DNA of 64,000 bases, taken from NCBI GenBank assembly GCA_013426185.1, contig CP058602.1, positions 10,231 to 74,230 of the forward strand, given 5' to 3'. Shown piece after piece: positions 7,182 through 29,182 of the stretch (position 1 is its first letter; the number at the start of each line of letters is the position of its first letter). The position numbers were made by a program, and so were the translations under genes. The stretch comes from Candidatus Woesebacteria bacterium. GTDB taxonomy: Bacteria; Patescibacteriota; Microgenomatia; UBA8517. The notes beneath the pieces are model-generated. The model was not told where the DNA came from. It saw only the letters and a list, made by a program, of their open reading frames with translations, and made no database searches.

Positions 7182-7658
7182 ATGTCAAAAATGGAACAAA
7201 CAGTTGTTTTGATTAAGCCTGATGCCCTTCAGCGCGGTTTGACTGGTGAGATTATTCACCGCTTTGACCGCAAGGGCTTAAAGCTTGTTGGTATTAAGAT
7301 GCTTAAATTAACTGACGAGATTATCAACGAGTGGTATGCTCATCATAGAGATAAGTCTTTTTTCCCTACTTTGAGAAACTTTATGGAGTGGACGCCGATT
7401 GTGGCTATGGTTTGGGAAGGGTTGGACGCGGTTTCTACTGTGCGCAAGATTGTGGGAACAACAAAGGGCAGGGAAGCAGAAGCTGGGTCAATTAGGGGAG
7501 ATTTTGGTATGAGCGGCAGTCAGAACTTGATTCACGCTTCGGATTCACCTGAGGCAGCGGAGAAGGAAAGAAAGCTTATTTTTTCAGATGATGAAATTTT
7601 TGATTATGTAAGCGCTTCTGAGTGCCTCATCTATTCAAGAGATGAGGTGGAAGGATAA
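7182..7658 (+). CDS. ndk: Nucleoside diphosphate kinase
   Basis: 'NLIHASDSPEAAEKE' active-site His region and 'GDFG' motifs. Confidence 0.9.
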   Translation: MSKMEQTVVLIKPDALQRGLTGEIIHRFDRKGLKLVGIKMLKLTDEIINEWYAHHRDKSFFPTLRNFMEWTPIVAMVWEGLDAVSTVRKIVGTTKGREAEAGSIRGDFGMSGSQNLIHASDSPEAAEKERKLIFSDDEIFDYVSASECLIYSRDEVEG

Positions 7659-7926
7659 CTTCCTATTTATCAACAATGGGTCTTGACTATATCCAAATAT
7701 TCAGATGGTGAATTTTGCCTTAGTAAAAATAATATGTTTTTAGCGTTGTGCTAGGTCAAGTAGTTTCAGGTTAAATTCTTATTATTCTGAGGTGGTTATT
7801 GGATTATCGTTTCTTTAGATAAATCATTCTTATATTGTTCTATCACTATCAAAACTTTCCGTTGCACCAAACTTTGGAAGAATATATCTTTTTCTGTTTG
7901 TTTTACGGCTAATATTGTGACCCTAT

Positions 7927-19039: not shown

Positions 19040-20005
19040 TTATTCGATATTGTGAGACCAGTAATCATTTGGGTCTAATCCTGTATCCAAACTTTCCAGC
19101 TTGTAACCTAAAGCTAGCAATCCCGCTACAATATTTTCGGCTTGATTTATATCATACCATCTTGTTGAATGGGATAAGACTATAGCTCCATTATTAATCC
19201 TATTATTGATAACTCTTTCTTGCGTTTCGGCATCGAGACCTCCGCTTTCAAGGCTCCAGATAACCGTTTGCATACCGAACTTTGCAACCTGTTCTCTTAC
19301 TCTTTGATTTCTATTACCATAGGGAGGGCGGAAAAACCTTAATGGGTATCCAGGAATAACTTTATTTAAAAGTTTAATAAATTTAGAGAGTTGTTTTTCA
19401 ATTTCTTTTGAGGTGAGAGATGTAAAGGGAACGTGTTCGTAGCCATGGCATCCGAGGGTATGCCCATTCTCTACTATTTGCCATGCGATATCGTGGTTAG
19501 GTTCTCTTTCTAACCATTCACCTGTCACAAAAAAACTTGTTTTGCAATTATATTTCTTGTAGACATTAAGGATTTTAGTAATATCATCTGTTCTGCCCCC
19601 ATCATCATAAGTTATAAGTATAACCTTACGGTTTTTATCTCCTCGTGATATTTCGTGGTTTGCTAAAAAGTTTATTTTCTCTTGAGTAATTTGCCCATTT
19701 TCAGATTGGGAAAGAAATTCAGGCGGCAAAGGGGTGAAAGTTGATGTTGGCTCGGGTGTGAAAGTTGATGTTGGTTCTGGTGTTTGAGTTTGGGTTGGAG
19801 TAGGAATTGTTGTCTCAGTAGGAGTAAGAGAAGGCCCCTTGGTAGGTTCTGGAGTTGGAGTTAGATCAGGACTACCCCCTTTGTTTTCATAAGGAGGAGT
19901 AATTCCACAAGCAGAAAGAAATCCAGCCGCAGATACAATAACTGCTCTTTTCAAGAATTCTCTTCTTGATATTCTTTCTTCTACTTTCCTTTCTGCTTTT
20001 GCCAT
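19040..20005 (-). CDS. Tat-lipoprotein with Pro/Thr linker and CE4 polysaccharide deacetylase domain
   Basis: 'SRREFLKRAVIVSAAGFLSAC' (Tat + lipobox), PT-rich linker, 'ILITYDDGG' and 'HGYEH' CE4 motifs. Confidence 0.75.
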   Translation of the reverse strand: MAKAERKVEERISRREFLKRAVIVSAAGFLSACGITPPYENKGGSPDLTPTPEPTKGPSLTPTETTIPTPTQTQTPEPTSTFTPEPTSTFTPLPPEFLSQSENGQITQEKINFLANHEISRGDKNRKVILITYDDGGRTDDITKILNVYKKYNCKTSFFVTGEWLEREPNHDIAWQIVENGHTLGCHGYEHVPFTSLTSKEIEKQLSKFIKLLNKVIPGYPLRFFRPPYGNRNQRVREQVAKFGMQTVIWSLESGGLDAETQERVINNRINNGAIVLSHSTRWYDINQAENIVAGLLALGYKLESLDTGLDPNDYWSHNIE

Positions 20006-20040
20006 AACTTAATAAGTATTATAGGACTTGTATGAAAGAT
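19783..20040. repeat. Inverted-repeat copy A (~258 bp): promoter -10, 5'UTR, signal peptide and PT-linker of the lipoprotein gene
   Basis: Nucleotide-identical reverse complement of 21076-21330, verified by reading both strands. Confidence 0.85.
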
Positions 20041-20497
20041 ATTCAAGCAAATCTTAGTCGGGCAAGAACCCCGAGTCCTTGCACCTTTTAACTTTTCCTC
20101 TCGCCTTTTACTATTATCGTACTTGATACCTGCTTCGCGACACTTGATACTATTTGTTTCAACCCCAGCCTTGAATTAGATTTTGCCTATTGCGAAAGTG
20201 ACAAGGACGGACCTTGTCCACCACCCTTTAAAGGCCAGGTAAAAGAATTCGGATTTCAGCTATCAGCCGTTGGTTGTTTGAGTTGCTTGTTATCTTAATT
20301 CCTAAATCCTAAATCAAAATTCTGTAATCTAATTTTTGATTTTTAAGTTTTAAGTTAATTTTTTTAGCTATCTAAGATTTACTGAAAAAGATCAGATACA
20401 TATTCGACATTGACACTTCATGAAAGGAGCTGTAGGTACACCTACTACAGGCCATTCTTTGTTTGTTAATATACCTCACTGGAAGGAGGTGGGAGAA

Positions 20498-21071
20498 ATG
20501 ATACAACACCTAAGAAGATTTGATTCTTCAGATATTGCCAAGGAGAGATTAAAGATTATTAGTTATTACCGGAAATAATGGATACCTTGGTTAGGTTTAC
20601 TGATGGTGTTAGATATTATCTTTATTCTGCTATTGATATTCATGGCAAATTTACCCTCTCCCTGCCTTACAAGAGGGCAAATGCCAGAAATACTCTAGAT
20701 TTTTTAAGAAGTTAGAATTAGTAATCCCTTACCAGATTACCTCTGTTCAAACAGATAATGGACCGGGGTTCTTGGGAGATTTTGAGCAATATTTAAAACA
20801 AAAGAAAATCAAACATTTTTTTATATACCCCAGGTGTCCAAGAATAAATGGTGTTATTGAAAGATATCAGAGATCTCTCAAAGAAGAATTCTTAAACCCC
20901 AATCTTCATCTCATCTGTTACCCAAAAGCTTTTAGTGACAGACTGGCTCAATATTTGATATTCTATAATACACAAAGAGTCTACCAGTCTCTAAACTATG
21001 AGACACCAGTGGATTACCTTATCAAGAAAGGAGGAATGTCGAAAATGTATCGAGCGCGTACATTTACTTGA
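20498..21071 (+). pseudogene. Decayed DDE (rve-type, IS481/IS3-like) transposase remnant: frameshifted and N-terminally truncated
   Basis: Three frames give 'MIQHLRRFDSSDIAKERLKIISYYRK*', 'FTDGVRYYLYSAIDIHGKF...' and 'TDNGPGFLGDFEQ...YPRCPRINGVIERYQRSLKEEF...FYNTQRVYQSLNYETP' (rve core). No intact ORF. Confidence 0.6.
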
Positions 21072-21075
21072 TTTT

Positions 21076-21330
21076 TTTCATACAAGTCCTATAATACTTA
21101 TTAAGTTATGGCAAAAGCAGAAAGGAAAGTAGAAGAAAGAATATCAAGAAGAGAATTCTTGAAAAGAGCAGTTATTGTATCTGCGGCTGGATTTCTTTCT
21201 GCTTGTGGAATTACTCCTCCTTATGAAAACAAAGGGGGTAGTCCTGATCTAACTCCAACTCCAGAACCTACCAAGGGGCCTTCTCTTACTCCTACTGAGA
21301 CAACAATTCCTACTCCAACCCAAACTCAAA
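21076..21330. repeat. Inverted-repeat copy B (identical to 19783-20040)
   Basis: Same sequence on the opposite strand, carrying the TTGATT-16nt-TATAAT promoter, the ATG and codons 1-75. Confidence 0.85.
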
Positions 21331-22070
21331 TACCAACCCCAACCGCCGAGCCAACACCTACTCCCACTGAAATTACTCTTGATATATACCACAACTTCTC
21401 AGGTTTTGAAGAAGGGAAGTGGAAGATGCCTGAAGAATCAGAAATTCCTGTTATCTCATATGAGGATATAACAAGCGGCAGACTTCTTGAGAAAGAACTA
21501 AAGCTTTTGTCAACAGGAGAAGTAACTCCTTTTACTGGCAATGAAGTGCCTTTGGAGATAATTTATTTTGAATATTCAAATGGTCAAGCTTTAGTTAACT
21601 TAAAAGGCGAATTTTATAAGATCTATGACGGTTTGGTAGATGAACCCGATAAGGTTCCTTTTCGAGTGACTTCTCTTTCTTTTGTAGATATTGAAGGAAC
21701 TCGACTTCTTGTTTTGGGTGTAGCAATGCATGAATCTGATGGCCGTGTTGCTGTTTTGCACTATGCTTTTGAGAATTACAAGGATCAGTTTGTAATCAAT
21801 ATGGTTCAGATTGCTGTAAATCGCAAAGCTTATGCTTTACCTTGGGGTGTTGTACACAAACCTTATTATGAGGGTTTTGGTTGGTATGATTACAACAAAG
21901 AATCATTCATGCTTGAGATGTATCAAGACGAAGAAGGTAAAAAAGAGAGGGAGAGTTTGCTTCAGGAATGGAACGATACAGGTAAAGCTCCTGAAAAGCT
22001 TCAAAAAATATTGCTTTTGGGCTTTATTGGACCATGGGATCCTTACAGACAGCGTGATATAAAGCCCTAA
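21108..22070 (+). CDS. Tat-lipoprotein paralog: N-terminal 75 aa identical to the 19040-20005 product, C-terminal domain of unknown function
   Basis: Identical 'MAKAERKVEERISRREFLKRAVIVSAAGFLSACGITPPYENKGGSPDLTPTPEP...' then an unrelated 240-aa domain. Confidence 0.6.
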   Translation: MAKAERKVEERISRREFLKRAVIVSAAGFLSACGITPPYENKGGSPDLTPTPEPTKGPSLTPTETTIPTPTQTQIPTPTAEPTPTPTEITLDIYHNFSGFEEGKWKMPEESEIPVISYEDITSGRLLEKELKLLSTGEVTPFTGNEVPLEIIYFEYSNGQALVNLKGEFYKIYDGLVDEPDKVPFRVTSLSFVDIEGTRLLVLGVAMHESDGRVAVLHYAFENYKDQFVINMVQIAVNRKAYALPWGVVHKPYYEGFGWYDYNKESFMLEMYQDEEGKKERESLLQEWNDTGKAPEKLQKILLLGFIGPWDPYRQRDIKP

Positions 22071-22293: not shown

Positions 22294-22767
22294 CTAGAAG
22301 GCGAGGATGAAGGAAAATATTATTAATGCTATTCCTATGCCTATAGTAATTCCTGTTGGCCAAGATGTTCCAGCTTCAGGTAGAGATGTTTCTATTGTCG
22401 GAGTAGGAGCACCGGCGATTAGCGGAGTTTGGGTGGGTATTGGAGTGCTGGTAATATTTGGTGTCTGAGTAGAAATGGGTGTTTGAGTTATAATTGGTGT
22501 TGGTGTATTAACTGACGTTGGTGTGGGTGTTAACGTATAAACTGGTGTTGGTGTGGGTGTTAACGTATAAACTGGTGTTGGTGTGGGTGTTGATATGTTA
22601 AAGGTTAAGACTTGGCACGAAGAGGTGGCTGCTTTTGGTTTACTTTCTGGCACATTTGGTGTTACAGATTTTTGCCTTAGTTGATAAAGCCTAATTGCTG
22701 TGAATATGGCTATCGCTGATAAAATCAGCAAAATTACTAGTGTTATTATTGTTTTTGTTTTTCTCAT
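22294..22767 (-). CDS. Pro/Thr-repeat surface protein with C-terminal LPEAG motif plus hydrophobic tail (sortase-substrate-like)
   Basis: N-terminal TM; '[10 protein letters not shown]' x2 encoded by a 30-bp DNA tandem repeat (~22520-22600); '[29 protein letters not shown]' at the C-terminus. Confidence 0.5.
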
Positions 22768-22771
22768 TTTT

Positions 22772-23896
22772 TTAAAACCAACCTAAAGTAACATGGTGCA
22801 CCTCTCCTTTTATTGAGAAAGTTGTCGCTCCTGCTGGGATTGTATATTCAGTATAAAACTCAGCTGTTGTACCTGGTTTTTTGCTGGTTACCTCTTGGCC
22901 TAATTGTCCATTTATGGTAAACCTAGCCTTGTCTATCTTATCAGCTGGTGATCCTATTACTGTAAACCTTACTCTATCTCCGGCTTTTAGTTGAGACAGC
23001 TGGTTTTGGGGGATAAGATTCCAGTTTGTATCATAAACCTTTATGCCAGTACACTGCGCATTTTCTTGGCTTGGTGGTTGAGTGGGTGGGGGAGTATTGC
23101 ATGGCTTGTCAGCCTGGACTGAAAGGTATTTAACATTGCCATAGGTATTATTTTGGTTTTTGCAGCCAGCGTCTATTTGGATTGATCCACAGTCTAAGTT
23201 GCCTACAGGGAAAGACTGGCCTGCACTGGCGTTCCAGCTAAGCACAACTCCGTTGTCTTGGCAGCCTTGAGTTAGGTTTATACCGTCACACTTGTATTTT
23301 GATACCCAGACTACACCATCTGGACAAGCCTGGCGACACTTTTGGATATCGTCGTTAGTAATGGTAAGCGCCGTTGTACTTGTTTCTCTTATCGGTGTTG
23401 TTCTGGAACATTGTTGCGGGGGGGAGGTGGGAGTAGGAGTTTTTGGAGGTGTTGTGGCAGTGGGAGTGGAAGTGGGAGCAATACAACCTTGCCCACATTT
23501 GTATCCATCAGCGCAGTTAACTTGGCCGAATTCTTCGGAGCAGGAGTAATTATTGGGGACACATTTTCCATTCAGACGTGATTGACAAACATTTCCAGTA
23601 GCAGCTTTTTCTCTTATGTCTTGGTTTTGATTTACCAGAACTATCCCTGAGGCAATACCTCCAACTAATAACATTATGCCTAATATTGTTGCTATGACCA
23701 ATCTTGTTTTAGACTTTTTCTTCTTCAAGGGTGTATTGCCACTATCACTGCTTTTAGGAAAACCACTAGTGTTTTCTGGGTTTGAAGAAATTGCACTTTG
23801 CGTCTTTTCATTCAAAGGGAAACTAGGGAAATCTGTCAGACTATCAAATGTGGATGGGTTTGTTTTGTTTGGGTTGTTTTGGTTTTGGTCAGGCAT
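22772..23896 (-). CDS. Membrane-anchored Cys-rich extracellular protein of unknown function
   Basis: N-terminal TM after a basic stretch; PT linker; >20 Cys in the ectodomain; no recognisable catalytic motif. Confidence 0.45.
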
Positions 23897-24015
23897 AGAT
23901 TACAAAGATTTATTATTAATTTCATATTAAGTTATGTTTTATAAAGAGTCAACTATCATTTAATACAATTAACCTCGGCTGATTTTTTCTTTTTTTTGGG
24001 CTATAATTAGAGCTT

Positions 24016-24915
24016 ATGAAGGCAAGCTGGAGAATATTAATGTTCGCTTCTGTTTTTTTGTTGGCAATGTTGTCTCTGTTTTTTAGTGTTCATGTGACGA
24101 AGGCTTTGGTGAGTCCTACACCTGTTGTTTCGCCAACTTCCACCATTGAGCCAACTGAAACACCGGTTACGAAAGTGGATATTACTCAAAAAACTGAAGA
24201 GTCAGTTGGGCCTTTGGAGAAATTATTGCGCGAACAAAAATTGGGGCCAGTTTGGCCTTACAATTTCTTAAAATATGCGATAAGAAACGCCGTTTCAGCC
24301 GGTGTCCCGGCAAATACCATTGTCCTTCTTTTGCTTTTGACTGCCGTTGCCGCCTTGATTGCCGCTTCTCGTCATCTTATTGGCCTTAAGGGTTTTGGTA
24401 TTTTTATGCCTGCTGCTTTATCTGTTGCCTTTGTTGCCATAGGTCCAATTTTGGGAATAACTATTTTTATTGTAATGATTGTTTTTTCCACTCTTTTCAG
24501 GATGGTTACCCGCCGTCTTAAACTTAAGCTTCAATATCTGCCGCGAATGGCTATGGTTTTGTGGTTTGTGGTCATTGGGGTTTTGGGTATTTTGTTTTTG
24601 GCGCCTGTTATCAAACAGCCTGATTTAAAAAATATTTCGATTTTTCCTGTCTTAATCTTGGTTTTGTTGGCTGAAGATTTTAGCCGTGTTCAAGCAGGGA
24701 AAAGTATCAAGACTGCTATTAATATGACTTTTGAGACATTGATTCTTGCTTTGTTTTCTTTCTTGCTTTTGACTTTTTCGCCTCTTCAAAAGTGGGCGCT
24801 TTTGAACCCTGAGCTATTTTTGCTTTTGGTTTTGGTCTTTAATCTTGTGGTGGGGAAATATGTGGGCTTAAGATTTATGGAGTATTGGCGTTTTAGGAAA
24901 TTAATCAGCCGCTAA
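24016..24915 (+). CDS. 7-transmembrane protein (7TM module of the kind fused to inactive transglutaminases in ATP-grasp peptide-ligase systems) with short PT-rich extracellular N-terminus
   Basis: Signal/TM, PT linker, then 7 predicted TM helices. First gene of a tightly packed + strand operon with three ATP-grasp genes. Confidence 0.55.
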   Translation: MKASWRILMFASVFLLAMLSLFFSVHVTKALVSPTPVVSPTSTIEPTETPVTKVDITQKTEESVGPLEKLLREQKLGPVWPYNFLKYAIRNAVSAGVPANTIVLLLLLTAVAALIAASRHLIGLKGFGIFMPAALSVAFVAIGPILGITIFIVMIVFSTLFRMVTRRLKLKLQYLPRMAMVLWFVVIGVLGILFLAPVIKQPDLKNISIFPVLILVLLAEDFSRVQAGKSIKTAINMTFETLILALFSFLLLTFSPLQKWALLNPELFLLLVLVFNLVVGKYVGLRFMEYWRFRKLISR

Positions 24916-24916
24916 T

Positions 24917-26254
24917 ATGAAAGCTTCAGAGATATTGGGTATTAACGCAAGAAACAAGCTCTTTTCTTATGTTTATAATAGTGCCAAAGGTAAAAACATC
25001 GCCGCTTCAAAGCTGAAGACTAAGAAGTATTTGAAAAAAGCAGGGGTTCCTATTCCTGAAGTTTATGCCAAGTTTAAGAATATTGACGAGATCTGGGATT
25101 TTGATTGGAACAGTCTTCCTTCAAGCTTTGCTTTAAAACCTAACCAAGGCTTGGGAGGCGAGGGGATTATTGTTGTTAAAAGGAAAGCCAAAGACGGCAA
25201 TGGCTGGATAACTACTCAAAAGAAAAGGGTAACAGTTGATGATTTAAAGCTTCATGCAACAGATATTATTGAAGGCGCATACTCTATGGATAATGAGCCT
25301 GATGTTGCTTATGTTGAAGAATATGTCGGCCGCCATAAGGCTTTTAGAAAATATGCCTACCGCGGAACGCCTGATATTAGGGTGATTGTTTTTAACCGTG
25401 TGCCTGTGATGGCCATGCTTCGCCTGCCTACTCGTGAATCAGGTGGAAGGGCTAATTTGCATCAAGGCGCAATTGGGGTTGGAGTTGATGTTGCAACAGG
25501 GATTACAACACGCGCGATTTGGCATGGGGATTTGATTAAATTTAAGCCAGGGACAAAACGCAAGTTGCATGGAATTAAGATTCCTCAGTGGGATAAGATT
25601 TTAGAAACCGCAGTTAAAGCACAGGAAGCTTGTTTTTTGGGTTATGTGGGGGTGGATGTAGTTTTGCATCCTGAACGGGGGCCGGTTGTTCTTGAAATTA
25701 ATTCTCAGCCCGGTCTTTCAATCCAAATGGCAAATGGCGTGGGTTTAAAGAAAAGGCTTGAAAAGGTTGAAGATTTGAAAATCAGGGACGCTTCGCATGG
25801 AATCAAGGTCGCAAAAGCCCTCTTTGCCGAGCGGTTTTCTGACCGTGTTCGGGCTGAGGAAGGCCTTAAGATAGTCAAAGTTTTTGAAGAAATTAAGATA
25901 AAATCAGTTTCAGGTAAAGTGGTTTTAATTCCTGCTAAAATTGATACCGGCGCCTGGCGAAGTTCAATTGATAAATCTTTGGCTGAAAAGCTTGGACTTC
26001 TTGATGAAAAAAATATCCTTTGGCGTAAAAAGGTTAAAAGCGCTTTGGGTGAGGATTATCGTCCCATTATTAATCTTACTTTTTGGCTTGCCGGTCGGAA
26101 GATAACAACACCGGCTTTTGTTTCAAAAAGGTCGTCTTTGAAGTTTCCTGTCATAATTGGCAGAAGGAGTTTGTCTGGTATTTTAGTTGACCCTGTGGTT
26201 GAAGTAGAAGATAAATTAAGGTTGGTTGAAAAGGGAAAGGGAGTCTTGAAATGA
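24917..26254 (+). CDS. ATP-grasp ligase (alpha-L-glutamate-ligase-related, RimK-like) fused to a C-terminal retropepsin-like aspartic protease domain (RimB/PF05618-like)
   Basis: ATP-grasp 'VVLEINSQPG' Mg-site block in the N-terminal ~310 aa. C-terminal 'VLIPAKIDTGAWRSSID' D(T/S)GA retropepsin signature and 'VIIGRRSL' flap-like segment. Confidence 0.7.
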   Translation: MKASEILGINARNKLFSYVYNSAKGKNIAASKLKTKKYLKKAGVPIPEVYAKFKNIDEIWDFDWNSLPSSFALKPNQGLGGEGIIVVKRKAKDGNGWITTQKKRVTVDDLKLHATDIIEGAYSMDNEPDVAYVEEYVGRHKAFRKYAYRGTPDIRVIVFNRVPVMAMLRLPTRESGGRANLHQGAIGVGVDVATGITTRAIWHGDLIKFKPGTKRKLHGIKIPQWDKILETAVKAQEACFLGYVGVDVVLHPERGPVVLEINSQPGLSIQMANGVGLKKRLEKVEDLKIRDASHGIKVAKALFAERFSDRVRAEEGLKIVKVFEEIKIKSVSGKVVLIPAKIDTGAWRSSIDKSLAEKLGLLDEKNILWRKKVKSALGEDYRPIINLTFWLAGRKITTPAFVSKRSSLKFPVIIGRRSLSGILVDPVVEVEDKLRLVEKGKGVLK

Positions 26255-27129
26255 AAATAACAGTTATCACTACAAATTATAATGCTTTTGCTCTTGAGAT
26301 AAAGAGATTAAAAGAAGAAGCGCAAAAAGCAGGTTATGATTTTTCGGTTTTGGACCTTGAGAATTTTTCTTTTGCAATTAAAGACGGAAAATTAGATATT
26401 GATTGGCTCAATGGTGAGATTTCTGATATTTATATCTTGCGAGGCGCGCTTCATTCTCAGAAATTAGTTTCTGAGATTTTGGAATATTTGAGAAAAAGAG
26501 GGGCTCGTGTCTTTGATAATAATTTCTTGAAGCATAAATATTCTATTAATAAAGTTGCCGATCTTGTTAAATTGACTTTGGCTGGAATTTTAGTTCCGAA
26601 CACTTTCTTTGCTCGTAGTTTTGATGATTTTTTGAAATTTGGGGAAGAAATTGGTTATCCGTTTATTTTTAAATCGGGTAGGGCGGGTAAAGGACAGGGA
26701 GTTTACAAAGTAGATTCAAGAGAGGACTTTTTGAAGATGATAGCTGGTTTTAATGATGAGGAAAAGGAGGCGCAATCTTTCTTGCTTCAGGAGTATATTC
26801 CTTATAAATACGACCTCCGCTGCCTTGTCATTGGTGATAGAACCTTTACCATGAGAAGAATCCCCAAAAAAGGCGATTTTCGCGCCAATTTTTCTTTGGG
26901 TGGCAGTGTTGAGCTTTTTGACCTTGATGATAGAGGAAAAGATCTTGCAAAAAGAGCGCTTAAGGCGGTTGGGCTTGAAATAGGCGGGGTGGATATTCTT
27001 ATAGACGAAAATGATAAGCGTTATATAATTGAGGTTAACCATACAGCAGGTTTTGTGGGTATGGAGAAGGCGACAGGAGAAAATATAGCCAAGATTTACC
27101 TTGATTTTGCTATTTCCCGCGCGTCTTAA
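26251..27129 (+). CDS. RimK/LysX-family ATP-grasp ligase (paralog 2)
   Basis: 'YPFIFKSGRAGKGQGVYKV' glycine-rich loop and 'YIIEVNHTAGFVG' ATP-grasp C-terminal motif. 4-nt overlap with the upstream gene. Confidence 0.75.
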   Translation: MKITVITTNYNAFALEIKRLKEEAQKAGYDFSVLDLENFSFAIKDGKLDIDWLNGEISDIYILRGALHSQKLVSEILEYLRKRGARVFDNNFLKHKYSINKVADLVKLTLAGILVPNTFFARSFDDFLKFGEEIGYPFIFKSGRAGKGQGVYKVDSREDFLKMIAGFNDEEKEAQSFLLQEYIPYKYDLRCLVIGDRTFTMRRIPKKGDFRANFSLGGSVELFDLDDRGKDLAKRALKAVGLEIGGVDILIDENDKRYIIEVNHTAGFVGMEKATGENIAKIYLDFAISRAS

Positions 27130-27136
27130 TTTTAAT

Positions 27137-28042
27137 ATGAAGATATTAATCGCAGGGCTTGTTAAAAATATCCAATTAGTTAGGCTTGTTGAAGAAGGAA
27201 AAAAACGAGGGCATATGGTTGAGGGTTGTTATGCTTCAGATTTAGTTATTGACTGCGACAAGGATTCTTTTAATCCTTATCTTGTTGATGGGAGGAAGCT
27301 TGAGGAATACGACCTGATTTATTCGATGATAGGGTCAAAAAGAAGGTGGGAGTGGTACACTGTTTTTAGTTTTCTTAATGAAAAATTCGGTACGACTATA
27401 ATTAACGAAAAAACGATAGCCAAGGATTATAATTACTTTTTATCACCAGCTCTTGATTATTTAAAGCAAACTCAAAACGATTTGCCTTATCCCAAGTCGG
27501 CCATTGTTTTTAATGCGAAGGGAGCTCGTGAGGCTATTAAATCTTTTACTTACCCTCTTGTTGTCAAATCTTCAGCAGGAAGACAGGGAAGGGGCGTTTT
27601 TCTTTGTAAGAATTTTGAGGATGTGCTTTCTGCAATTGAGGAAATACACAAAGTGGGAGTTGAAGCTGTGGTTATAAGAGAGTTTATACCCAATGATGGT
27701 GATTTGAGAATTTTTACTGTTGGCTATCGCGCGCTTGGAGCAATGAAACGTTCTCCAACAAAAGAAGGGGAGTTTAGGAGTAATATTAGTTTGGGCGGCA
27801 GGGGTGAGAAATTTGAGTTAGAAAATTATCCAGAAATAAAATCTATTGCCGAAAAAGCGGCAGAAGTGATGAAGACGGAAATTGCTGGAGTCGATATTAT
27901 AATTCACCAGGAGACTTCTAAGCCTTATATTTTGGAGATTAATCCCTCGCCTCAGTTTGAGGGTTTTGAAAAATATACAGGAATTAACGTAGCGGAGAAA
28001 ATTATTGAATATTTTGAGGAAAGAAGAAATCAAAATAGATAG
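27137..28042 (+). CDS. RimK/LysX-family ATP-grasp ligase (paralog 3)
   Basis: 'YPLVVKSSAGRQGRGVFL' and 'YILEINPSPQFEGFEKYTG' motifs. Start placed at the ATG at 27137 (MKILIAG). Confidence 0.75.
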   Translation: MKILIAGLVKNIQLVRLVEEGKKRGHMVEGCYASDLVIDCDKDSFNPYLVDGRKLEEYDLIYSMIGSKRRWEWYTVFSFLNEKFGTTIINEKTIAKDYNYFLSPALDYLKQTQNDLPYPKSAIVFNAKGAREAIKSFTYPLVVKSSAGRQGRGVFLCKNFEDVLSAIEEIHKVGVEAVVIREFIPNDGDLRIFTVGYRALGAMKRSPTKEGEFRSNISLGGRGEKFELENYPEIKSIAEKAAEVMKTEIAGVDIIIHQETSKPYILEINPSPQFEGFEKYTGINVAEKIIEYFEERRNQNR

Positions 28043-28044
28043 TT

Positions 28045-28254
28045 TCAGCGAATTTTGAAACCAGTTTCTCCTTCTCTTAACCACCTTGTTATTTCAAGAA
28101 TGACTCTTTCTAGTTTGGCTATGTTTTCTTTATTGATTATTCCGATTTCTATCAATTCAGGCAGTTTCTCAAAAGAAATATATCTGTTTGCGCCAATCGC
28201 TAGAAGGCGAGCTGCTGGTATATCTCCACAATTAATACTTGCAAGTTGTCGCAA
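28045..28254 (-). CDS. Small hypothetical ORF (69 aa) convergent on the ATP-grasp operon
   Basis: ORF only, with protein-like composition. A + strand ORF overlaps it, so only one can be real. Confidence 0.2.
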   Translation of the reverse strand: MRQLASINCGDIPAARLLAIGANRYISFEKLPELIEIGIINKENIAKLERVILEITRWLREGETGFKIR

Positions 28255-28325: not shown

Positions 28326-28976
28326 TTATATTGTTTTGGTAATTGTAATCAAATTCCCGCGTCTTTTTAGTTTTTCTTGTACCGCTTTGCTTTTTAACTC
28401 CTTCAGTGCGTCTTGCGCAATCCATCTTGCGCTCTTAGAATTGATTTTTGAAATTTCTTTCGCCAGTTTTATCGCTTTTTTATTCAAGTTTGTGTTTCTT
28501 TTACCGATTTGTCGAAGCGCCCAATTAACGGCTTTTTTAACGAAATTTCTTTCATCAACAGATTCTCTTTTTATATTTCTAAAGAATTTGATAAATTTTT
28601 TGTCTAATGCTTTTTTATCATGCACCGAAAGACAAGCCATCAAAACAAAACCCGCCCGCTTGATAAATTCCTCTTCTTTCTTGCTCCATTCAACCGCTTT
28701 TTTGTAGGCAATGTGGGTTTTATCAAAGAAGTTGCTACAAACTTGGTCACAGACATCCCATGAATCAAAATCTTTAACCCATTTTTCAATCTGCGGCTCG
28801 GTTGCTTTTTCCGGTTCGGCAATCATTGCTGCCAAAATTCTCGCTTCATGAATTTCAGAATTCCAGAGCACTAAAGCTAGTTCGTGATTTTTACCGATTT
28901 CTTTGGCTATTTTTCTTAAGATAGGCAAAGACGGTCCGCCTAGAATATTTTTTCCCCTTATACCAAACCGTGCCAT
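28326..28976 (-). CDS. DNA alkylation repair protein (AlkC/AlkD HEAT-like repeat family)
   Basis: 'ELALVLWNSEIHEARILAAMI', 'WDVCDQVCSNFF' and 'NFVKKAVNWALRQIGKRN' blocks characteristic of PF08713. Confidence 0.8.
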   Translation of the reverse strand: MARFGIRGKNILGGPSLPILRKIAKEIGKNHELALVLWNSEIHEARILAAMIAEPEKATEPQIEKWVKDFDSWDVCDQVCSNFFDKTHIAYKKAVEWSKKEEEFIKRAGFVLMACLSVHDKKALDKKFIKFFRNIKRESVDERNFVKKAVNWALRQIGKRNTNLNKKAIKLAKEISKINSKSARWIAQDALKELKSKAVQEKLKRRGNLITITKTI

Positions 28977-29102: not shown

Positions 29103-29110
29103 ATTCCTAG

Positions 29111-29182
29111 TCGGGGATGTGAGATTTGAACTCACGACCTCACGGTCCCGAACCGTGCGCGCTACCCCTGCGCCAATCCCCG
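29111..29182 (-). tRNA. tRNA-Pro (anticodon CGG)
   Basis: Manual cloverleaf on the minus strand: CGGGGAT acceptor, GCGC D-stem, anticodon loop TTCGGGA, T-arm GTGAG-TTCAAAT-CTCAC. Confidence 0.85.

Follow-up and report, generated by a model that had tools for sequence, protein, structure and literature searches.

A seven-transmembrane protein and an ATP-grasp ligase–retropepsin fusion form a conserved gene pair related to Rlo and Rim systems in Patescibacteria

Introduction

What kind of system is encoded where an ATP-grasp ligase carries a retropepsin-like protease on the same polypeptide, next to a seven-transmembrane (7TM) protein and two further ATP-grasp ligases? This question is raised by four genes (g1 to g4) of a Candidatus Woesebacteria bacterium (Patescibacteria; assembly GCA_013426185.1). 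They lie within 64,000 nt of contig CP058602.1 (positions 10,231 to 74,230 of the forward strand), the stretch of DNA analysed here and referred to as the window; coordinates are those of the window unless another locus is named. The surrounding sequence is low in GC (37–41%). An initial annotation, made from the sequence alone, had by implication treated the arrangement as unusual and unique. We find instead that the 7TM protein and the fusion constitute a conserved two-gene core across Patescibacteria. A published description of this combination was not found in our literature search.

Operons of ATP-grasp, 7TM-transglutaminase and aspartyl-protease genes were reportedly first brought together in the comparative-genomics account of Iyer et al. 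2009. The rloABC operon of P. aeruginosa, which has orthologues in Vibrio, Legionella and Shewanella, was described in 2025 (Lormand et al. 2025, PMC11957051). Its RloA proteases are secreted retropepsins that cut runs of at least eight glutamates via K46, R114 and R137 (PMC11957051). A triple rloA mutant suffers hypo-osmotic death and is defective in cell shape, biofilm formation and tolerance of cell-wall antibiotics, and deletion of rloB or rloC suppresses these defects (PMC11957051). The natural product or substrate of rloABC is still undefined in that study, which reports 96% of RloB hits from Proteobacteria, and disruption of an RloB homologue in Shewanella alters membrane-vesicle production (PMC12096838). 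In the Rim system, RimB binds RimK, stimulates it to make poly-alpha-glutamate and trims what is made; a natural hybrid of RimB and RimK that has the protease at its N-terminus is proteolytically active (Little et al. 2025, PMC11957791). The view of the initial annotation that both function and substrate are unknown is partly outdated by the rloABC genetics, protease biochemistry and active hybrids published in 2025, and still holds for the natural product.

Results

The four genes are co-directional on the plus strand at 24016–24915 (g1), 24917–26254 (g2), 26251–27129 (g3) and 27137–28042 (g4). One base separates the TAA stop of g1 (24913–24915) from the ATG of g2 (24917), g2 and g3 share an ATGA stop/start overlap (26251–26254), and the stop of g3 (27127–27129) is followed by a 7-nt spacer and the ATG of g4 (27137), a start that agrees with public gene calls. 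An identical g2 protein was found on three public contigs, where the four gene products are likewise 299 (291 on one contig), 445, 292 and 301 aa long. The open reading frame (ORF) list, our reading of the junctions and the public gene calls bear out the initial annotation in its layout of four abutting genes, as hidden Markov model matches do for the domains it had assigned to all four proteins. The motifs it had named, E-I-N and D-T-G-A in g2, E-V-N in g3 and E-I-N in g4, are present.

The centre of the cassette is g2, a 445-aa protein in which a helical and disordered linker joins a RloC-type ATP-grasp ligase to a retropepsin. PF14397 (ATPgrasp_ST) matched residues 12–285 with 237.8 bits (cut-off 31.4), and this model, TIGR02291 and Foldseek place the ATP-grasp body at 24950–25771. 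The ligase is 39% identical to the rloC product of Legionella (E 8e-69). An AlphaFold2 (AF2) model of full-length g2 reached a predicted local distance difference test (pLDDT) score of 83.9, with residues 306–316 of the linker at low confidence, and its best Protein Data Bank (PDB) matches in Foldseek were ArgX, RimK and LysX. Across 82 fused proteins, over which we computed residue conservation, K74, R155, D247, E260 and N262 of the Mg/ATP site, the last two belonging to the E260-I-N262 motif, are invariant. These comparisons identify the N-terminal part of g2 as an amino-acid ligase of the RloC-type ATP-grasp kind with an intact Mg/ATP site.

Since the full-length model had matched ATP-grasp structures only, the C-terminal domain was modelled and searched apart. 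This beta-rich domain (residues 318–426, 25868–26194) was delimited by PF05618, by a profile search against the PDB and by AF2 with Foldseek. PF05618 (Zn_protease/RimB-like) matched residues 364–426 with 28.5 bits, just above the cut-off of 27, and the profile search returned RloA2 (9g59, E 1.8e-5) and RloA (9g58, E 4.6e-4). The AF2 model of the domain alone (pLDDT 89.2) had as its top Foldseek matches RloA 9g58, Lpg0085/DUF785 2pma, RloA2 9g59, Rickettsia APRc, foamy-virus and HIV-1 proteases and Ddi1. Structure prediction thus confirmed the retropepsin fold that had been proposed for this part of g2, and the D-T-G-A region is ordered in the model, which is that of a monomer.

Two motifs stand out in the domain, the catalytic D343-T-G-A346 (codons at 25943–25954) and the C-terminal I413-I-G415-R. 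T344, G345 and G415 are invariant in all 82 fused proteins and D343 is kept in 74. Among these 74, Lys or Arg occupies position 341 in 74, 382 in 72, 405 in 74 and 416 in 73 proteins, and the pI of the domain is 10.3. In the alignment with the solved structures of RloA and RloA2, K341, R382 and R405 each fall on a basic residue: K341 sits two residues ahead of the catalytic Asp, like K46 of RloA, and R382 and R405 are matched by the Arg of the 'RPVI' and 'DRS' motifs. The distance between R382 and R405 is 23 residues, the same as between R94 and R117 in 9g58 and between the published R114 and R137 of RloA. From this spacing, on which the match of the numbering rests, we infer that K341, R382 and R405 are the counterparts of the polyglutamate-binding K46, R114 and R137. 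We assign the C-terminal part of g2 to the RimB/RloA-type retropepsins, with a catalytic D-T-G-A and four conserved basic residues.

The partner of this enzyme, g1, is a membrane protein of 299 aa that belongs to the 7TM_transglut (RloB C-terminal) family. PF14402 matched its residues 100–296 with 91.4 bits (cut-off 25). The NCBIfam RloB model scored 61 bits (cut-off 900) and was covered only at positions 298–506 of 508, and g1 is 28% identical to residues 329–503 of the 508-aa Legionella RloB. The inactive-transglutaminase domain PF14400 was not found in g1, where Pfam detected PF14402 alone; Legionella RloB has both. According to our own hydropathy estimate, an N-terminal signal or anchor (7–25) and a Pro/Thr-rich outside segment (26–98) precede seven hydrophobic segments within residues 99–281, the second of which is only moderately hydrophobic. 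Lys/Arg-rich loops and the tail fall on the presumed cytoplasmic side in a positive-inside analysis, again our own estimate made with no dedicated predictor. Sequence similarity shows g1 to be a homologue of the 7TM half of RloB.

We then asked how widely this arrangement occurs. Searching with g2 yielded over 6000 protein clusters; the best 120 were 414–463 aa long, and most of these had both PF14397 and PF05618. A scan of GTDB species-representative genomes gave at least 600 pattern-matching stretches, and 596 of the matches listed were confirmed by tblastn. The nearest relatives come from Candidatus Woesebacteria and other Patescibacteria. The best 80 of the at least 600 stretches cover Woesebacteria, Blackburn-, Shapiro-, Collier- and Levybacteria, Saccharibacteria, Moranbacteria, Kaiserbacteria and Parcubacteria (individual loci are cited by our L numbers). 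ORFs were called in every related locus and classed by phmmer and all-against-all clustering.

In all 79 loci with upstream sequence, a short 7TM homologue (152–344 aa) lies directly upstream of the fusion at a median spacing of 9 bp, and in every surveyed case the retropepsin domain is fused to the ligase. Downstream contents, scored in the 70 loci with at least 3 kb of sequence, vary: 23 have two RimK-like genes, 20 have one and 4 have three, while 11 have a different ATP-grasp gene (PF02655, 500–780 aa), one has both types and 11 have no ligase directly adjacent. Because the 7TM protein and the fusion are constant while the downstream ligases change, the conserved unit is the 7TM and ligase–retropepsin pair, and g3 and g4 are variable, lineage-specific accessories. 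The conservation of neighbourhood that the initial annotation had named as a test thus holds for the pair and fails for g3 and g4, whose orthologues occur only in eight Woesebacteria loci; the two tandem ligases, which it had counted as part of the system, stand outside the core.

What are these accessory ligases? Both g3 (292 aa) and g4 (301 aa) exceed the cut-off of the RimK family model TIGR00768 (161.9 and 161.3 bits against 143.4) and match PF08443 with 98 and 126 bits; both have Gly-rich loops beside their E-V-N or E-I-N motif and weak Rimk_N matches. Among solved structures, g3 is nearest to the RimK proteins of Pseudomonas and E. coli, and g4 is likewise nearest to RimK. Neither passes any of the equivalog models. 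With 84.1 and 99.1 bits they fail the S6-glutamate ligase equivalog NF007764 (cut-off 331), their partial matches to the LysX equivalog (114.8 and 118 bits) fall short of 275.6, the MptN and CofF equivalog models also scored under their cut-offs, and graspetide maturase models gave at most 43 bits against 350 (TIGR04187) and 24.5 against 230 (TIGR04192). The profile matches show g3 and g4 to be RimK-family ligases, only 27% identical to each other. In a neighbour-joining tree the accessory ligases split into many deep clades, and the clades of g3 and g4 are each confined to the same eight Woesebacteria loci, where g3 orthologues score above 270 bits.

For comparison with known systems, a canonical protease–7TM/transglutaminase–ligase operon was recovered on a Legionella plasmid (L087). 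The cassette shares with rloABC the same three families (PF14402 7TM, PF14397/TIGR02291 ATP-grasp and PF05618 retropepsin with D-T-G-A) in a tight operon, and the basic residues of g2 appear to match the polyglutamate-binding Lys/Arg of RloA. Unlike the protease–7TM–ligase order of rloABC, its order is 7TM–ligase::protease. RloA is a separate, secreted protein with a signal peptide, encoded upstream of rloB, whereas the retropepsin studied here resides within a cytoplasmic ligase polypeptide that has no signal peptide, and a separate retropepsin gene was not found in the ORF list of the window cassette. With its 299 aa, g1 lacks the inactive-transglutaminase ectodomain of RloB (508 aa). One to three additional ATP-grasp ligases follow, and the host is a member of the Patescibacteria.

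RimBK resembles the cassette in that a cytoplasmic retropepsin is coupled to an ATP-grasp ligase, here by fusion, and in that g3 and g4 belong to the RimK family. But the RimB-RimK hybrid has its protease at the N-terminus of a RimK-type ligase, whereas g2 has it at the C-terminus of an ATPgrasp_ST/RloC-type ligase. Rim systems have no membrane partner, unlike the cassette with its 7TM protein, and g3 and g4 fail the S6-ligase equivalog. A haloarchaeal protein (Haladaptatus salinisoli, 438 aa) also consists of an ATP-grasp ligase followed by a C-terminal PF05618/aspartyl-protease domain and is 30% identical to g2 over query residues 228–432; its ATP-grasp domain is however RimK-type (PF08443), no 7TM or extra ligase genes are annotated nearby, and it is uncharacterised. 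LysX/ArgX-LysW, CofF and MptN share the ATP-grasp subfamily fold with g3, g4 and the g2 ligase body, but equivalog scores are far too low and no carrier or cofactor-pathway genes are linked. Since the RimB-RimK hybrid and the haloarchaeal RimK::retropepsin exist, a ligase–retropepsin fusion as such is already known. New is the combination of a RloC-type ligase with a C-terminal retropepsin, a transglutaminase-less RloB-type 7TM protein and variable ligases in a Patescibacteria host.

Other relationships were considered and rejected. PADLOC matched no anti-phage defence model to any of the four proteins, and a reading of the cassette as a defence system was dropped on that account. The 'RloC' and 'RloB' of the Menshen and anticodon-nuclease literature coincide with our proteins in name only, and the Klebsiella TupA-like ATP-grasp is unrelated.

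The wider neighbourhood differs between lineages. In Microgenomates loci the cassette is convergent with rplL-rplJ-rplA-rplK (the L7/L12-L10-L1-L11 cluster). In Saccharibacteria/Moranbacteria-type loci (L041–L085) it is part of a block ruvB ... yebC-ruvC-7TM-fusion-ligases-PBP1A, in which a class A penicillin-binding protein (PBP) gene (Transgly, Transpeptidase and Big_7 domains) lies 3' of the ligases, mostly on the same strand and sometimes with one gene between. This adjacency may reflect a functional link to the cell wall or merely inherited synteny. On a complete Woesebacteria chromosome (L001, CP065002.1), a gene for a 23S-rRNA-intervening-sequence protein (PF05635, 7553–7930) is inserted between the 7TM and fusion genes, and a Y1 transposase gene follows the ligases. 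Two loci of one Patescibacteria lineage have a GNAT acetyltransferase gene (L003, 10199–10681; L004, 8077–8559) that overlaps and follows a single RimK-like ligase and precedes a gene for a 604-aa protein with no Pfam match; this pair may be another accessory module. Many records among L007–L086 bear the titles 'uncultured Gammaproteobacteria', 'Pseudomonadales' or 'Bdellovibrionales', while three carry an archaeal label. These titles of metagenome-assembled genome records look unreliable, because the synteny is of the candidate phyla radiation (CPR) type, the chromosome in one record (OZ246419.1) is complete at 0.81 Mb and 'PATE' is part of one isolate name.

Upstream of g1 in the window lies an AT-rich divergent intergenic region (23897–24015). 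It contains a perfect TATAAT hexamer (24002–24007) only 8 nt ahead of the g1 ATG and has no Shine-Dalgarno sequence there, in contrast to g3, which is preceded by a clear GGGAG-type ribosome-binding site. A consensus scan of the region found no full -35/-10 match, and promoter and terminator scans were at background level. The position of the hexamer suggests a candidate g1 promoter, in which case the leader would be very short or absent and g1 leaderless or nearly so.

The initial annotation had offered neighbouring ORFs as substrates or carriers. Downstream and convergent with g4, a 69-aa ORF (28045–28254, minus strand) had been one of them. It aligns to residues 333–401 of a 406-aa protein of L005 (38% identity, E 8e-13), and is uncalled in public annotations. 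The corresponding gene of about 406 codons, with no Pfam match, is intact in L005 (4215–5435, minus strand), where it is convergent with the last ligase. As the window lacks the remainder of this gene, we take the 69-aa ORF to be a C-terminal gene remnant and discarded it as a carrier. Directly beyond it, where the rest of the gene would be, lies a DNA-alkylation-repair gene (28326–28976, minus strand), followed by a tRNA-Pro(CGG) gene (29110–29182, minus strand) between it and rplL; five more tRNA genes occur in the window. The secreted proteins encoded upstream at 21108–22070, 22294–22767 and 22772–23896 fared no better as partners: phmmer found no homologue of them, including the PT-rich and Cys-rich proteins suggested as substrates, in any of 86 related loci.

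Further upstream, a 273-nt inverted repeat has arms at 19770–20042 and 21071–21343 that are 98% complementary and 1028 nt apart. Both arms encode the same leader of about 75 aa, which combines a twin-arginine-like signal (RREFLK), a lipobox-like Cys and a linker rich in Pro and Thr. It heads two proteins that otherwise differ: a polysaccharide-deacetylase-like ORF (19040–20005, minus strand) and the ORF at 21108–22070 (plus strand). Between the arms lie integrase/transposase-like ORF fragments (20420–20578 and 20772–21071). The repeat (19770–21343) has the appearance of a duplicated leader module that flanks the decayed remains of a mobile element.

Discussion

We give an even chance to the reading that the cassette is the Patescibacteria (Woesebacteria-type) version of the Rlo/Rim polyglutamate ligase–protease family and serves the membrane-associated synthesis and trimming of an acidic chain. 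The initial annotation had linked the locus to RimK/RimB-type ligase–protease pairs and to 7TM_transglut modules, and this link is supported; its idea of tailing and trimming at the membrane fits the published rlo and rim biology (PMC11957051, PMC11957791). The conserved Lys/Arg residues and the strongly basic retropepsin domain argue for a polyanionic, glutamate-rich substrate.

Homology and conservation are shown by the comparisons above, whereas our picture of the substrate, the product, docking, dimerisation and export is inferred. In it, the fused enzyme would be located at the membrane's cytoplasmic face, docked on basic loops or the tail of the 7TM protein, and its ATP-grasp domain would consume ATP in joining glutamate, or another acidic residue, by alpha linkage and one step at a time to a growing chain or an acceptor. 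Two retropepsin domains of neighbouring protomers could dimerise; they would then stimulate the ligase, as RimB does with RimK, and cut over-long acidic chains, setting the length of the product. The accessory ligases g3 and g4 may prime, extend or diversify the chain, and the 7TM partner might export the product or anchor it towards the cell envelope.

Several observations weigh against this polyglutamate reading. TIGR02291 scored 273.4 bits with g2, under its cut-off of 314.2, for which reason we regard the ligase, as judged from its sequence, as a divergent RloC relative and no strict equivalog. The protease is cytoplasmic and fused, unlike the secreted protease of rloABC, and the published genetic logic of periplasmic trimming is therefore not simply transferable. 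A 7TM protein without a transglutaminase ectodomain could be an anchor or sensor instead of a transporter. Patescibacteria have little amino-acid biosynthesis, and a glutamate polymer would be costly to them. In addition, 8 of the 82 fused proteins (L047, L068, L074, L075, L077, L079, L081 and L086) form one clade with N/H-T-G-R in place of D-T-G-A, in which the equivalents of K341 and R382 are lost as well. Their retropepsin domain is presumably inactive, and with the catalytic Asp replaced, proteolysis must be dispensable in some lineages. As this clade keeps the domain without D-T-G-A, the retropepsin seems to have a non-catalytic role also, which fits the stimulation of RimK by RimB. One of the eight loci, L047, has an additional stand-alone retropepsin gene (A-K-V-D-T-G-A) directly downstream at 7283–7714.

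The strongest rival, although we consider it unlikely, places the cassette in the cell wall. The ligases would add amino acids to a peptidoglycan precursor or an envelope-linked peptide, comparable to ATP-grasp D-Asp ligases acting on lipid-linked stem peptides, while the 7TM protein presents or flips the lipid-linked substrate and the retropepsin edits. A class A PBP gene downstream of the ligases in 24 Saccharibacteria/Moranbacteria-type loci points in this direction, as do the rlo mutant phenotypes (cell shape, cell-wall antibiotic sensitivity, hypo-osmotic death), the Pfam name of PF14397 ('sugar-transfer associated') and, read from sequence only, the polysaccharide-deacetylase-like lipoprotein encoded 4 kb upstream in the window. 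But neither the window nor any Microgenomates locus has the PBP gene next to the cassette, and the adjacency may be inherited synteny only; genes for Mur ligases, glycosyltransferases or flippases are not consistently linked, and the conserved basic residues, which are RloA-like, speak for a polyanionic peptide rather than a stem peptide. Quite improbable in our judgement is a ribosomal role, in which g3 and/or g4 polyglutamylate ribosomal protein S6, the fused retropepsin is a RimB-type eraser and the 7TM protein is only a regulator. It would account for the RimK-family matches and RimK-like closest structures of g3 and g4, it has precedents in RimB-RimK pairs and hybrids, and the Microgenomates cassette always adjoins the L7/L12-L10-L1-L11 cluster. 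Yet g3 and g4 lie far under the S6-ligase cut-off, many deep ligase clades with zero to three members per locus are unexpected for one conserved ribosomal target, and the one ligase that does not vary is of RloC type and comes with a membrane protein throughout. The ribosomal genes are moreover convergent and absent from Saccharibacteria and Moranbacteria loci; a functional link to the adjoining L7/L12-L10 genes, convergent and found in Microgenomates loci only, is unlikely. An S6 gene was not found in the window by tblastn with an approximate E. coli S6 query.

Action of the ligases on a small encoded peptide, be it a LysW-like carrier or a graspetide-like precursor whose leader the protease removes and whose product the 7TM protein exports, appears highly improbable. 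ATP-grasp, protease and membrane protein are a common layout for peptides that are ribosomally synthesised and modified post-translationally (RiPPs), and g3 and g4 match LysX in part. However, their LysX and graspetide scores are far under the cut-offs, the genes abut with no room for a peptide gene, and the only small neighbouring ORF is a gene remnant. In the comparison of ORF families across lineages, which covered ORFs of at least 90 aa and thus not peptides of LysW size (about 54 aa) or other shorter ones, no family beyond the 7TM protein, the fusion and the ligases was common to the surveyed lineages.

A bolder reading, possible although doubtful, is a modular, ribosome-independent 'ATP-grasp assembly line' specific to Patescibacteria. 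Its self-editing core would build an acidic peptide at the membrane, and swappable ligases (zero to three from the RimK-like clades, or the ATP-grasp of about 500–780 aa) would give a lineage-specific, exported or wall-linked polymer. If true, this polymer could form an envelope or attachment surface of these episymbiotic, ultra-small bacteria, and could reveal the product class of RloB/RloC in pathogens. The combinatorial set of accessory ligases hints at product diversity.

In Pseudomonas, rloABC influences the shape of the cells, their osmotic survival, their tolerance of antibiotics and the formation of biofilms. The very small genomes of Patescibacteria keep a stripped-down homologous core in many lineages, which extends the RloB/RloC families well beyond Proteobacteria. 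That this core is retained with the protease fused and the transglutaminase domain absent argues that ligase, protease and 7TM protein are one functional unit, and that the transglutaminase domain and secretion of the protease are dispensable add-ons. With only two genes, the system is a tractable target for reconstitution and a minimal model for the Rlo/Rim polyglutamate machinery.

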